Assembly (NCBI GenBank): GCA_000004695.1
Contig: CM000155.2
Coordinates: forward strand, 192,001 to 256,000
DNA length: 64,000 nucleotides
Direction of reading: 5' to 3'
Source: Dictyostelium discoideum
Taxonomy: Eukaryota
Positions 13,952-21,677 of the stretch are shown piece after piece. The notes under the pieces are model-generated. The model did no database searches and had not been told where the DNA came from. It worked only from the letters and a program-made list of their open reading frames with translations. The translations under genes and the position numbers were made by a program. Within the stretch, counting starts at the first letter, position 1, and each line of letters opens with the position of its first letter.

Positions 13952-16900
13952 ATGGAAGAAAATACAAATAATATAGACAATGGGCATATGGGTGATAATA
14001 ATAATGAAAATAATAATAACAGTAATAATAACAATAATAACAACAGCAATAGCAGTAGTTCATTCGTAAAGGGTAGAATTGATTCTTTAAATAAATCAAC
14101 AAATGGTTTAATTAAAATTGGAAGGTCAGTTGAAAATAGTAATAACAGTATTACAAGTGGTGGTAGTAGTAGTAATTCTGGCGAAATCAGTTCAAATAAT
14201 AATAATAATAATAATAATAATGGAATTTTAAAAAATAGTACAAGTGGTAGTAAAGACAATACTCCACTTTCAGAAAGTTCAATAAATTTACGAAGTATAA
14301 AAACAAGTGGTGAAAATAAATTAAATAGTAGTAGTAGTAGTAATAGTAATAATAATAATATAGGCGTAATTAATAAAGGTGTTTCAACTAATTTAAAATC
14401 AATAATGAATGCATTAAGTTCAAAATCAAGCGAAAATTTATCAAATTTTAATAATAATAATTCATTATCATCATCACCACTAAAAGAAAATCAATTAGTT
14501 AAATCGTTTGATAAGAATATAACTCCCTCAAAAAATAATTCACCTAGAGCACACCTAAATAATAATAATAATAATAATAATAATAATAATAATAATAATA
14601 ATAATAATAATAATAATAATAATAATAATAATAATAATAATAATAATAATAATAATAATAATACAACACCAACATTAAACTCACCAAGAAATAAAAATTC
14701 AATATATAATACAAATAGTAATAATAATAGTAACACTACAAATTCAACACCAAATTCAGCCATAACACCAAATATTATAGTTGAAAATAAAATTAAAGAG
14801 AAAATTCAATTGTGGGGTATGTTAAAATCAAATTGTAAAAAATATAAAGATATGGAATTAAATCAAATTGAAACATCATTTGGAAGAGGTTCAGCAGATT
14901 ATAATTTTGATGATGAAAAAGTAGTATCTTCAAATCATTTTAAAATAATACTGCATAAAACTGTTTTACCATATGGTATTTCAAATGGTAGTCTTAATAA
15001 TTCACCAAAACCACTTTCAACAATAATACCGTCAAGTAATACAATAACAACAGCGACGACTAATAATAATAATGATAATGCTGAATCATTAACAACCTAT
15101 TCAGAAAGTTCAGAAATTTCAACCGATTCAACAGGAGTTTGTTCATCATCATCATCAACATCTAGTACTTTATCATCAAAATCATCATCATCATCATCAT
15201 TTAATAAATTTATGGAATTTTTATTAATATATATAGAGGATAATGATAGTACAAATGGTACTTGGGTTAATGGAAATAAATTGAATAGAGGTGAAAGAGT
15301 TCAATTAGACGATAAATCAAAAATTACCCTATCAACACCAGATTTTTCATCATTATCATTTACATTCGAAAGTAATATTTCATCATTATCTGATGAAGAA
15401 AAGGGTAAATTATTAAAAGCAATTGTAATCTTAAAAGATAGTTTAGATGATAGTACCAATAGTTTTGGTAGTTCAACAACAACAACAATAAGTGGTGGTG
15501 GTAGTGGTTCATCATCTGTTAATAGTAGTGGCGGTGGTAGTGGTACAACACCAATTAATGTTACACCAAATAGTAGTAATGTATCAGTAACTAAAAAAGT
15601 TATTAATAGGACACCATCATTTAAAATGTCAAATTTATCAACAAAACCCGAAGGTTTCGTTTCAATTTTAAAGAATGAACCAACACTAAAGAATATTCAA
15701 TTACTTTTATCAACTATTAAAACAAGTGATGATCAATGGAAAGAGAATTTCATTCAAACCGATTGTATTTTAATGATTGTCGATTTACTATCATCAAATT
15801 ACAAAAAATTAAGATATAATGAAATCGATCAGGCCATTGATATCGAATGTTTATCAATTTTATCCACAATTTTTACTTGTTCAAAATCAAATCAAAATGC
15901 ATTAAAACAACTATCAAAATCAAATGAATTAAATTTTAATGATATTTTTATGTTATTCTTATTGAATCAACAAAATTCAAATCATTCAGTTAAAACTAAA
16001 TCACAATTTCTTCAATTTTTAAATTCAATAACTAGTAATGAAATTTGTCATAAAATGATCATTTCTTCAATTGAAAAAATACATTCAATTAAAAAAGATA
16101 AATTAAAATTTAAATGGTTAGTTGAAAGTATGGTATTTGAATCTGATTTTCAATATAAATTACAATCACTTACTTTAATTAATTCATTACTTTCAAATTG
16201 TAAAAATCAAACAACTCTTACAAAAATAAAATCAGATTTACAATCATTAGGTATTGGTAAAATTAATGATCTTTTAGTATTAGATTCTTCAATTAAAGAA
16301 ATGTCAATTCAATTAACAAAATTTAATAATAATTTTAATTCTTCATCATCTTCATCATCAATCTCATCAAATTCAATAAATAATTCTCAAAATAATAATA
16401 ATAATAATAATAATAATAATAATACAAATAATAATAATAATAATAATAGTAATAATAATAACATTAATAATAATAATAATAATTTAAATACTCGAAAAAA
16501 TAATTTTAATTGTAAAACTTTAAATTTAAAAGATCCAATATCTTTAGTATTGTTATTACAAAATGAATTGAAATCCAATTTTTCAACTTCAGTTCCAACT
16601 TCACCAACTTCAAAAAATCCTTTAATTACTTCAAATAATAATAATACTTCAATTGGTAATAATAGTAATAATATAATAACTTCAATATTAACTGATTTAT
16701 ATAAAATTGCAAATAATAATAATAACAACAATAATAATACTAATAATAAACCAAAAATGGATTCAAATTCTGCTTTAACTTTATTATCTGATTTTTCAAA
16801 AATAATTTCAAGTTCAATATCAAATGAACAAGGTTTGTATTTATTTTCTATTTAATGATTTTTTACTAATTTATTAGTATCTAACCTTTTTTTATTGAAA

Positions 16901-19900: not shown

Positions 19901-21677
19901 CATAAATTCAATTAAACAAAAACTATTATTAAAACAAACTCAAATTAGATCAACTAGAACTGATTCAAGCAGAATTAAAAAAGGTAAAAATGTTTCTCAA
20001 ATTGTTAAACAAGTTGAAAATGAATCACCTCTTCCAAATCCAAATAAAACTTTATCAGCAATCCGTCGTCATAATTCAAATTTAAGTAGAAAATCTTCAA
20101 AATCTTCAAACAATTCTTCAACTTCAAGTTTAGAATCTTTAGTTCAAACCAATGTTATTAATGGTTTAAATAATCTTAAATCAGTATCATCATCCTCCTC
20201 ATCCTCATCATCAATGGTAGTTAATAAAAATGGTATTGATGATAATCAACAAAAACAACAAAAACAACAACAACAACAACAACAACAACAACAACAACAA
20301 CAACAACTACCACAACCACAACAACAACAACAACAACAACAACAACAACAACAACAACAACAACAACAACAACAACAACAACAACAACAACCACAACAAC
20401 AATCCACAACAACCACCACTATTTCAACACATCATCCACAATTAAAACAAGTTCAACCACAATCACCATCTTCTTTATCACAACAACCAACTCAACAAAT
20501 ATTGAAACCAGCTCAACCATCATCTCCATTACAATCACATTATAAACCTCAACAAAAACCCCAAACAACATATATTCCAAAACCAAAACCATATATTGCA
20601 AATCCATTTCCATCTTCTACCACATCAACTAATAGTTCACCAAGTAATGCTTCTGATTTAACAGAGGTAATAAAATCAACTCAATCACCATTTGAAAGAG
20701 AACAAACATTTACCAAACCAACATTACAACCTGTTAAATACCCATCATCGGCATCTTCAAACTCTTCTTCAGTTTCTGGTTCATCTCAATCCACTCCATT
20801 ATCAGCAGCCAGTTTACAACCAGTTGGAAATAGAAATCTCCGTAAACAACATGTTACTCCACCTTCATCATCAATATCTAATTCAACAGCAACAACAAAA
20901 TCAAAGAAAGAAGGTAATATTAGATTTGTTGATCAAGCTTCACCCTCATCATCAAGTTTGGAGCAAAGCTCAAATGCTAGCAACGCTGGATATACTTCAC
21001 CACCAAGAGAAAATAGTTTTTCAAATCTATTTAAAAAACATAAGAAATCTCATTCAAAGAGTAAATCAACCGATAATACTTTAAATGGTGAAATAGAATC
21101 TGTTGATGAAAATGAAAAATCAAGAAAGAAACCAAAAACTGTTACAAAGATTATTGACTTTTCAAAGAAATTATTTTCACATAAAAAATCAAAATCTGTT
21201 GATCAATCTTCAAAATCTAATAACACCAACAACAACAACAACAACAACAACAACAACAACAACAACAACAATAATAATAATAGTAATATAGATTATAATA
21301 ATAGTTTAAATGATGTTGGATCATCATCTTCTTTTTCTTCTTCTTCTTCTTCACCTACATCAAACCCTTTTCCAATTATCCAACCACCAAACCAAAGTCC
21401 TCCGACAAAAAATATAAGTTCTGGTAATATCAGTAATAACACTTCATATAGTTCCTTGGGAAGTATGAACGGAAATAATTTAGTTGCTTCACCATCTTCA
21501 TCAATTACCTCATGCAAACCATCTCCAGGTGCTGTGTCTTCTACTTCTTCCACTTTAAAAACTCCAGATTTCTTTGATCATAAAAAGGTTCAAACTCCAG
21601 AACAACTTGGAATTAAAAGTACTGATATACCAAAGGTAATAATTATACCTCCAAATTTTTATCAACAACCTGTATAA
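13952..21677 (+). CDS. forJ: Formin with N-terminal FHA domain, poly-Pro FH1 and FH2 domain, 2546 aa: join(13952..16832,16918..21677)
   Basis: FHA domain around 14809..15330 (TSFGRGSADYNFDD...HFKIILH...IYIEDNDSTNGTWVNGNKLNRGERVQLDDKSKITL). Donor CAAG|GTTTGT lies at 16832/16833 and the aaaatag acceptor at 16916-16917, with consistent phase. FH1 comprises PPPPPPP runs around 17140..17330. FH2 (around 17380..18480) contains LLDPRRSYAVSILISKYKLTP, LSDVDQFIIETLKVPKIRQRLECIEYKIQFESTLQELVLNAKCVQQVSTS and FHGLLHFILRIGNYMNAGSSRGNAEGFKLGFLLTVGNTKS. The second ORF in the track starts at an in-frame TTG, not ATG, so it is an internal exon. The joined product is 2546 aa, the length I recall for Dictyostelium ForJ, the FHA-containing formin. 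The symbol is given with moderate confidence only. Confidence 0.82.
20236..20400 (+). repeat. (CAA)n coding triplet repeat (poly-Q, about 55 residues) inside the formin gene
   Basis: The repeat is read directly. Similar coding CAA/AAT runs occur at 14557..14660, 44590..44750, 45130..45212, 25380..25440 (minus strand, ATR) and 63577..63680 (minus strand). Confidence 0.9.

Follow-up and report, generated by a model that had tools for sequence, protein, structure and literature searches.

The forJ locus of Dictyostelium discoideum: a spliced formin gene with an FHA domain and a diverged DID region

Structure and identity of the gene

The DNA considered here is a stretch of 64,000 nucleotides from Dictyostelium discoideum (contig CM000155.2, positions 192,001 to 256,000 of the forward strand), which is termed the window and numbered from its first letter. 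Its plus strand carries a formin gene at 13952..21677, which we identify with high confidence as D. discoideum forJ, a gene of two exons, one intron and 2546 codons, whose product is a formin of the Diaphanous-related type bearing an FHA domain in its N-terminal part. An earlier note on this DNA, made from the letters alone, had described a 'ForJ-like' protein combining FHA, FH1 and FH2 domains. As the gene agrees with published forJ in product length, number of introns and set of domains, this description can be refined: by all available criteria the gene is forJ itself. It is thus already known, its structure and domain layout having been published (Rivero et al., 2005, BMC Genomics 6:28, PMC555941).

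The gene appears in the window as two open reading frames (ORFs) of the plus strand, located as the earlier note had given them: 13952..16855 (967 amino acids (aa), beginning with ATG) and 16962..21677 (1571 aa, with TTG as its listed first codon). The single intron proposed to join them (16833..16917, plus strand) measures 85 nucleotides (nt), has GT..AG ends and a G+C content of 14%, lies in phase 1 and contains stop codons in all three frames. It reads GTTTGT...AAATAG, with the contexts AAG/GTTTGT at the 5' and AAAATAG/AA at the 3' end, and is backed by splice signals, by the alignment of orthologues and by the published gene structure (Rivero et al., 2005). The ATG-initiated exon 1 (13952..16832, 2881 nt) encodes aa 1–960 and the first base of codon 961, exon 2 (16918..21677, 4760 nt) encodes aa 961–2546 followed by the stop codon TAA. 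Together they comprise 7641 nt, that is 2546 codons and TAA, free of internal stops, precisely the product length calculated before. The intron interrupts codon 961 (GAA, Glu) between the first and second bases (G/AA), and its removal restores the frame. Nine frame-keeping GT..AG pairs were enumerated; 16833/16917 is the only one that yields 2546 aa, and its consensus-like AAG/GT is the best donor context. The second ORF is indeed listed from TTG, but this is no true start: the codon is an internal one, Leu976 of the joined protein, and its designation as a start is a convention of the program that lists ORFs.

The list of two ORFs parted by stop codons could also be taken to indicate two genes, an upstream one for a protein with FHA and armadillo domains that terminates at the stop 16853..16855, and a downstream one for an FH1-FH2 formin. 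The downstream frame, however, is open from 16896, and its first ATG is Met1116, located inside FH2 and past FH1, while the intron, AT-rich and with GT..AG ends, is canonical and typical in size, and restores the frame. Furthermore, six dictyostelid orthologues and a transcript of Ceratiomyxa are single proteins that run through the junction without a gap. In a MAFFT alignment with seven orthologues, ForJ SSISNEQ-E-YQKSIPVLEEK stands opposite NALTNED-E-YKKSLPLLEEK of Dictyostelium purpureum. The same alignment displays a common start (ME[ED]N) and a common extreme C-terminus in ForJ and the dictyostelid orthologues; with the D. purpureum orthologue ForJ shares an N-terminus of the pattern ME[ED]N...SFVKG.[IV]DSLNKST. 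The Trinity transcript product from Ceratiomyxa fruticulosa (P0158, 1327 aa) holds FHA, GBD, FH3 and FH2 in a single chain, so that in a relative the architecture is documented at the level of a transcript. As the literature, too, gives one intron and 2546 residues, we attach next to no credence to two genes. The model of a single gene, spliced via 16833..16917 as the earlier note had put it, is supported by sequence collinearity with the orthologues and by the agreement with published forJ in length and intron number.

The published description of forJ (DDB0183855, chromosome 6) comprises one intron, 2546 residues and an N-terminal FHA domain, and introns of the Dictyostelium formin family are generally found upstream of the FH1-coding region (Rivero et al., 2005). 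GBD and FH3 of ForJ are reported as 'slightly below the default threshold' in SMART, in a region lengthened by repetitive inserts; the DAD has its hydrophobic residues replaced by polar ones and 'might not be functional'; ForJ alone among the ten Dictyostelium formins has a long C-terminal extension, and only ForJ and ForG among them have Met in the GNYMN motif (Rivero et al., 2005). Every published descriptor is reproduced by the sequence of the window, and no difference was detected: the likeness extends to the 2546 residues, the intron upstream of FH1, the FHA domain, a weak GBD/FH3, FH1 and FH2, as well as to GNYMN with its Met, the degenerate DAD and the long C-terminal extension. Several homopolymer tracts of the protein evolve fast, and the exact match in length is therefore strong evidence for the same gene in the same species.

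We also considered that the window might derive from a species closely related to D. discoideum and the gene be an undescribed orthologue, since the exact protein was found in none of the searched libraries. Tracts of poly-Asn, poly-Gln and poly-Ser encoded by triplet repeats change in length fast, though, and a match of both 2546 residues and one intron would be very unlikely elsewhere. In the nearest sequenced species, D. purpureum, the protein F0ZEN7, the nearest one found, has 2334 aa and 58% identity. A close relative as the source is therefore highly improbable, and we continue to refer to the gene as forJ.

Domains of the predicted protein

Conservation of ForJ is limited to the two halves of FHA, the DID, two blocks of FH3 or dimerisation type, FH1, FH2 and two short islands in the tail. 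The FHA domain spans aa 286–476. Pfam FHA (PF00498, gathering cut-off 20.7 bits) matches the whole protein with an expect value (E) of 9.5e-10 and 39.2 bits, and the segment on its own in two stretches with E 4.5e-12 and 46.7 bits. The call of an FHA domain at 14809..15330 (aa 287–460) in the earlier note coincides with the Pfam envelope and is borne out by this match of the hidden Markov model (HMM). The N-terminal half (aa 286–336, 14807..14959, plus strand), with Gly311-Arg312 and Ser326-x-x-His329, is delimited by Pfam, the alignment to Rad53 FHA1 and the orthologues; the C-terminal half (aa 422–476, 15215..15379, plus strand), with Ser433-Thr434-Asn435-Gly436-Thr437, by a Pfam stretch at aa 426–460 and the Rad53 alignment. 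In a phmmer search of PDB sequences both halves align to Rad53 FHA1 and Chk2, the best matches. In the alignment to Rad53 FHA1, SFGRGSADYNFDDEKVVSSNHFKIILH pairs with TFGRNPACDYHLGNISRLSNKHFQILLG, and NDSTNGTWVNGNKL pairs with DISTNGTWLNGQKV. Arg312, Ser326, His329, Thr434 and Asn435 thereby fall into the GR, SxxH and STNGT motifs of Rad53 FHA1, which hold the canonical phosphothreonine contacts.

ForJ thus keeps the phosphothreonine-binding motifs GR, SxxH and S-T-N-G-T of FHA domains of the Rad53 FHA1 and Chk2 type. These, however, belong to checkpoint kinases and are contiguous, with some 17 residues from the His to the Ser of STNG, as compared to about 100 in ForJ. A low-complexity insert (aa 337–421, 14960..15214, plus strand) lies between the strands that align to beta5 and beta6 of Rad53 FHA1; it comprises about 85 aa where Rad53 has about eight and consists of 32% Ser, 15% Thr and 12% Asn. 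At this place the orthologue of Acytostelium subglobosum has a gap of 3 residues, and ForJ and Cavenderia fasciculata have one of 80, which marks the insert as a lineage-specific expansion. In the general topology of FHA domains the beta5-beta6 turn and the loops that bind the peptide are at opposite ends of the sandwich; by analogy, the insert would sit in a turn that points away from these loops.

Such an insert might have wrecked the fold and abolished phosphopeptide binding, leaving the domain as a decayed relic. The domain is split, and the Pfam scan of the whole protein aligns its C-terminal half only. Against decay, Arg312, Ser326, His329, Thr434 and Asn435 are all kept, and this in every dictyostelid orthologue; GR, SxxH and S-x-N-G are invariant across these orthologues and Ceratiomyxa. 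The insert has anything from 3 to 80 residues and the binding motifs remain constant, which points to purifying selection on the binding residues, and identity to the orthologues amounts to 31–71% in the FHA halves versus 2–44% in the insert. Judging by established structures, the beta5-beta6 turn that holds the insert would further be opposite the binding loops. We therefore regard a relic as quite unlikely. The pattern, as far as sequence can tell, argues for a functional FHA domain with a lineage-specific low-complexity expansion.

Downstream of FHA, aa 554–800 (15611..16351, plus strand) constitute a GBD/FH3 region with an armadillo-repeat, DID-like fold, assigned from sub-threshold Pfam matches, a profile, AlphaFold2 and Foldseek. 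With the single sequence, Pfam stays below its cut-offs (FH3_FHOD1-3 24.1 bits versus 27.4, Drf_GBD 21.1 bits versus 30.1), with the two weak matches located at approximately aa 559–772 and in the correct N-to-C order. A single-sequence phmmer search of PDB sequences returned only spurious matches to Cullin-3 and a weak one to FMNL2. In the orthologues, Drf_FH3 exceeds the Pfam cut-off in five of six cases, and Drf_GBD does so in A. subglobosum and in Ceratiomyxa. A profile built from an alignment of eight sequences, namely aa 554–800 of ForJ and seven counterparts, was run against PDB sequences and retrieved the DID of INF2 (E 5.5e-19), FMNL2 (E 7e-17), FMNL1 (E 4e-15) and the GBD-DID of mDia1 (E about 1e-12). 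AlphaFold2 using the same eight-sequence alignment predicts an all-helical repeat for these residues (predicted local distance difference test (pLDDT) 83, predicted template modelling score (pTM) 0.82), whereas the prediction from the single sequence is unusable (pLDDT 47.6). Foldseek places the DID of mDia1 first among PDB structures (4uwx, 8fg1, 2bnx; template modelling (TM) score 0.69–0.74), followed by FMNL1, Entamoeba histolytica formin 1 and FHOD1, with TM scores of 0.64–0.74 for the top matches overall. The earlier note had seen no clear GBD/FH3; judged by the orthologue profile and the match of the predicted fold, a diverged DID/FH3 armadillo domain is present at aa 554–800.

The segment aa 847–990 (16490..17006, plus strand) may correspond to the rest of FH3. 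It is interrupted by poly-Asn, contains the intron and holds islands that are conserved in the dictyostelid orthologues, among them the blocks KTLNLKDPISL and ALTLLSDFSK. From its position we infer that it is a dimerisation-like region.

Both the poly-Pro FH1 and the canonical FH2 of the earlier note are found. FH1 (aa 1034–1096, 17136..17324, plus strand) comprises by sequence count four poly-proline tracts of 8, 11, 9 and 6 Pro and ends 12 residues before FH2. FH2 itself (aa 1108–1468, 17358..18440, plus strand) is assigned by Pfam and by alignment to PDB structures. It matches Pfam FH2 (PF02181) with E 7.9e-88 and 295.5 bits (cut-off 34.8) over profile positions 3–370 of 372, and its nearest solved structures are DAAM1 (E 2.8e-41) and mDia1 (E 4e-37). 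Ile1189 in the knob, GNYMN at 1311–1315 and Lys1338 in the post region each have an identical counterpart in the alignment to DAAM1 (2z6e). In the formin family of Dictyostelium the Ile of the knob is absolutely conserved, and the Lys is replaced in ForB and ForH only (Rivero et al., 2005). Sequence and fold show that FH2 of ForJ has the residues needed for dimerisation and for binding to actin barbed ends.

FH2 is followed by a C-terminal extension of 1066 aa (aa 1481–2546, 18477..21674, plus strand), recognised by composition and alignment and rich in Ser, Lys, Gln and Asn. With 20% Ser, 11% Lys and several basic patches it agrees with the Ser-rich tail with a basic patch that had been noted before; it also holds tracts of poly-Gln, encoded by (CAA)55, and of poly-Asn. 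The Pfam scan found no family in the extension, including its two conserved motifs. These are a basic-hydrophobic motif KKPKTVTKIIDFSKKLFSHKKSKSVD (aa 2364–2389, 21126..21203, plus strand), conserved among the dictyostelid orthologues with the pattern FSKKLFSHKKSKS, and a C-terminal peptide KKVQTPEQLGIKSTDIPKVIIIPP (aa 2516–2539, 21582..21653, plus strand), which ForJ shares with five of the six dictyostelid orthologues, A. subglobosum being the exception, in the pattern KK.ITP.QLG...D[IV]P..I.[IV]P. The Thr of the conserved 'ITPxQLG' in this peptide was considered as an intramolecular ligand of FHA; this candidate is weakened by C. fasciculata, in which the Thr is Ala, and has a place only within the improbable proposal on an FHA-regulated subclass given below.

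Closer to FH2 there is a degenerate DAD-like motif NDNLELSKLGFLSKLRKKRSKS (aa 1541–1562, 18657..18722, plus strand), conserved in the orthologues as F[LF]SK[LF].KKK. Its basic stretch RKKRSK comes after LELSKLGFLSKL, about 75 aa past FH2, and orthologues keep it in the form F[LF]SK..KKK. The DAD-like portion LELSKLGFLSKLRKKRSKS (aa 1544–1562) is without the MDxLLxxL core, in agreement with Rivero et al. (2005). The earlier note had seen no clear DAD; a degenerate, DAD-like basic motif follows FH2, and the canonical hydrophobic core is replaced.

Relatives of ForJ and neighbours of the gene

Orthologues were sought by an exhaustive HMMER search of representative sequences with aa 285–1484 as query, which returned 6989 formins. 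Six orthologues stand apart at 1084–432 bits, the next formin having 323 bits: D. purpureum (F0ZEN7), a dictyostelid-like entry of EukProt, Polysphondylium violaceum (A0A8J4V157), Heterostelium album (D3BPP9), C. fasciculata (F4PGF9) and A. subglobosum (XP_012753700). In all six, Pfam detects FHA and FH2 in one protein. A word-indexed search with the 1223-aa sequence from FHA to FH2 had found three distant formins only, low-complexity words swamping the matches, and the same type of search with an insert-less FHA plus DID query gave no matches. In the dictyostelid orthologues and Ceratiomyxa P0158 the order FHA-GBD/FH3-FH1-FH2 is the same as in ForJ, but the proteins are shorter (1327–2334 aa), with FHA inserts and low-complexity tracts of other lengths; several orthologues keep GBD/FH3 better than ForJ, in that Drf_FH3 and Drf_GBD exceed their cut-offs in Pfam. 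Compared to mDia1, DAAM1, FMNL1/2 and INF2, ForJ is alike in FH2 (closest to DAAM1 and mDia1), in the DID-like armadillo fold and in FH1 directly upstream of FH2, whereas those formins are without an FHA domain. From Diaphanous-related formins it differs by the missing hydrophobic core of the DAD, a weakly recognisable Rho-binding subdomain and a tail that adds some 1070 aa.

For the wider distribution, 153 fetched representatives were scanned with a local FHA HMM and the matches re-checked with Pfam. The arrangement FHA-GBD-FH3-FH1-FH2 is also found in Ceratiomyxa (Eumycetozoa), in Anaeramoeba flamelloides (Metamonada) and in a eukaryote from an ENA metagenome (P0036). The Anaeramoeba protein, an 'inverted formin-2' (KAJ6242299, P0081), has FHA directly N-terminal to GBD-FH3-FH1-FH2. 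Balamuthia mandrillaris (KAL6077823, P0069) displays a marginal FHA (20.8 bits versus the cut-off of 20.7), and a fifth FHA-formin (P0128) is an N-terminally truncated protein. The proteins of Anaeramoeba, Balamuthia and the metagenome share the domain order of ForJ, but have no long tail. The remark of the earlier note that FHA-formins are rare outside Amoebozoa is a fair one; a single clear case from outside that group was found, in Anaeramoeba.

A neighbour-joining tree built from 152 FH2 domains unites the dictyostelid ForJ sequences in one clade in 100 out of 100 bootstraps, and does so in 167 out of 200 with Ceratiomyxa added. FH2 of Anaeramoeba, Balamuthia and the metagenome eukaryote falls outside this clade. 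A single origin of all FHA-formins finds no support in the tree, in which the smallest clade holding all of them contains 87 of the 152 sequences; a common origin of the fusion is thus unproven.

A separate observation concerns A. subglobosum, where DF837575.1 (10001..11596 of the extracted locus) encodes a 460-aa, FH2-only protein (P0004) between the genes for ELO and Sec61-beta. With the ELO gene 1.3 kb upstream, the locus has no room for FHA, DID and FH1. The FH2 of this protein lies inside the ForJ clade (100 out of 100 bootstraps), where its closest neighbour is the ForJ orthologue of the same species, and it is therefore a lineage-specific duplicate of ForJ FH2 alone. Loss of FHA in Acytostelium, as P0004 might have implied, is ruled out by the existence of the true orthologue P0014 (1483 aa, with FHA, GBD, FH3 and FH2).

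As to the surroundings of forJ, the window has a G+C content of 12–43% per kb and is full of AAT and CAA triplet arrays; both AT-richness and such arrays are typical of Dictyostelium. Minus-strand ORFs of 81–160 aa at 13894..19699 were rejected as genes, being mostly poly-Leu, reverse-complement reads of AAT/ATT-rich coding repeats. On the minus strand, facing forJ in convergent orientation and separated from it by about 590 bp, is an uninterrupted ORF of 2446 aa (22264..29604) for an ATR-type PI3K-related kinase with the Pfam domains UME, M-HEAT_ATR, FAT, PI3_PI4_kinase and FATC; more exons may lie upstream, and its product has no exact match in the searched collection. Further ORFs encode a TCP-1/cpn60 chaperonin subunit of 508 aa (9979..11505, plus strand; Pfam E 2e-154), located at a local peak of G+C content (0.43), a bZIP-domain protein of 602 aa (5774..7582, plus strand) and a protein of 401 aa with a PI3/PI4-kinase catalytic domain (185..1390, minus strand). 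At 48001..50000 two consecutive kb have a G+C content of 0.43, as compared to 12–35% elsewhere, which probably marks a coding region that is conserved or highly expressed.

Possible function and meaning

Several points weigh against the reading of the locus given here. The identification with forJ rests on published descriptors and not on a residue-by-residue comparison, and an exact-sequence match to the 2546-aa product is absent from the searched protein collection. The Rho-binding part of GBD is weakly detectable by sequence (21.1 bits for Drf_GBD, as given above), and the unconserved hydrophobic core of the DAD makes classical DID-DAD autoinhibition doubtful. Finally, the searchable literature yielded no functional study of ForJ, later papers mentioning the protein only in passing, so that all of its activities are deduced by homology.

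Formin biochemistry, as worked out for mDia1, DAAM1 and Bni1p, describes an FH2 dimer that nucleates actin and tracks barbed ends while FH1 feeds it with profilin-actin. By analogy, ForJ would dimerise via FH2, nucleate actin filaments and elongate them processively, with FH1 delivering profilin-actin to FH2. The DID/FH3 region would localise ForJ and may possibly autoinhibit it, and FHA may dock the protein onto a putative Thr-phosphorylated partner. A Ser/Thr kinase would thus place or switch actin assembly by ForJ, mainly in multicellular development, when forJ mRNA rises: the transcript goes up at the transition to multicellularity and then stays high (Rivero et al., 2005).

A tentative and on balance improbable proposal is that ForJ is a member of an old, unrecognised subclass of FHA-DID-FH1-FH2 formins, found throughout Dictyostelia and in Ceratiomyxa, which docking of FHA to phosphothreonine, instead of release of DID-DAD by Rho-GTP, would place or activate. 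As part of the same proposal, the conserved motifs of the tail may be partners of this regulation. Architectures that look alike exist in Anaeramoeba, in the uncultured eukaryote and, marginally, in Balamuthia.

The locus is, in summary, a correctly read and previously described gene and not a new architecture. The surveys of 2005 (Rivero et al., 2005) and 2008 had confined the combination of FHA and formin domains to one species, D. discoideum. This combination is conserved across Dictyostelia and shared by Ceratiomyxa, and it turns up again in at least one organism outside Amoebozoa, which amounts to a modest revision of 'unique to D. discoideum'. Dictyostelium is a tractable organism for asking how an FHA domain may regulate a formin.

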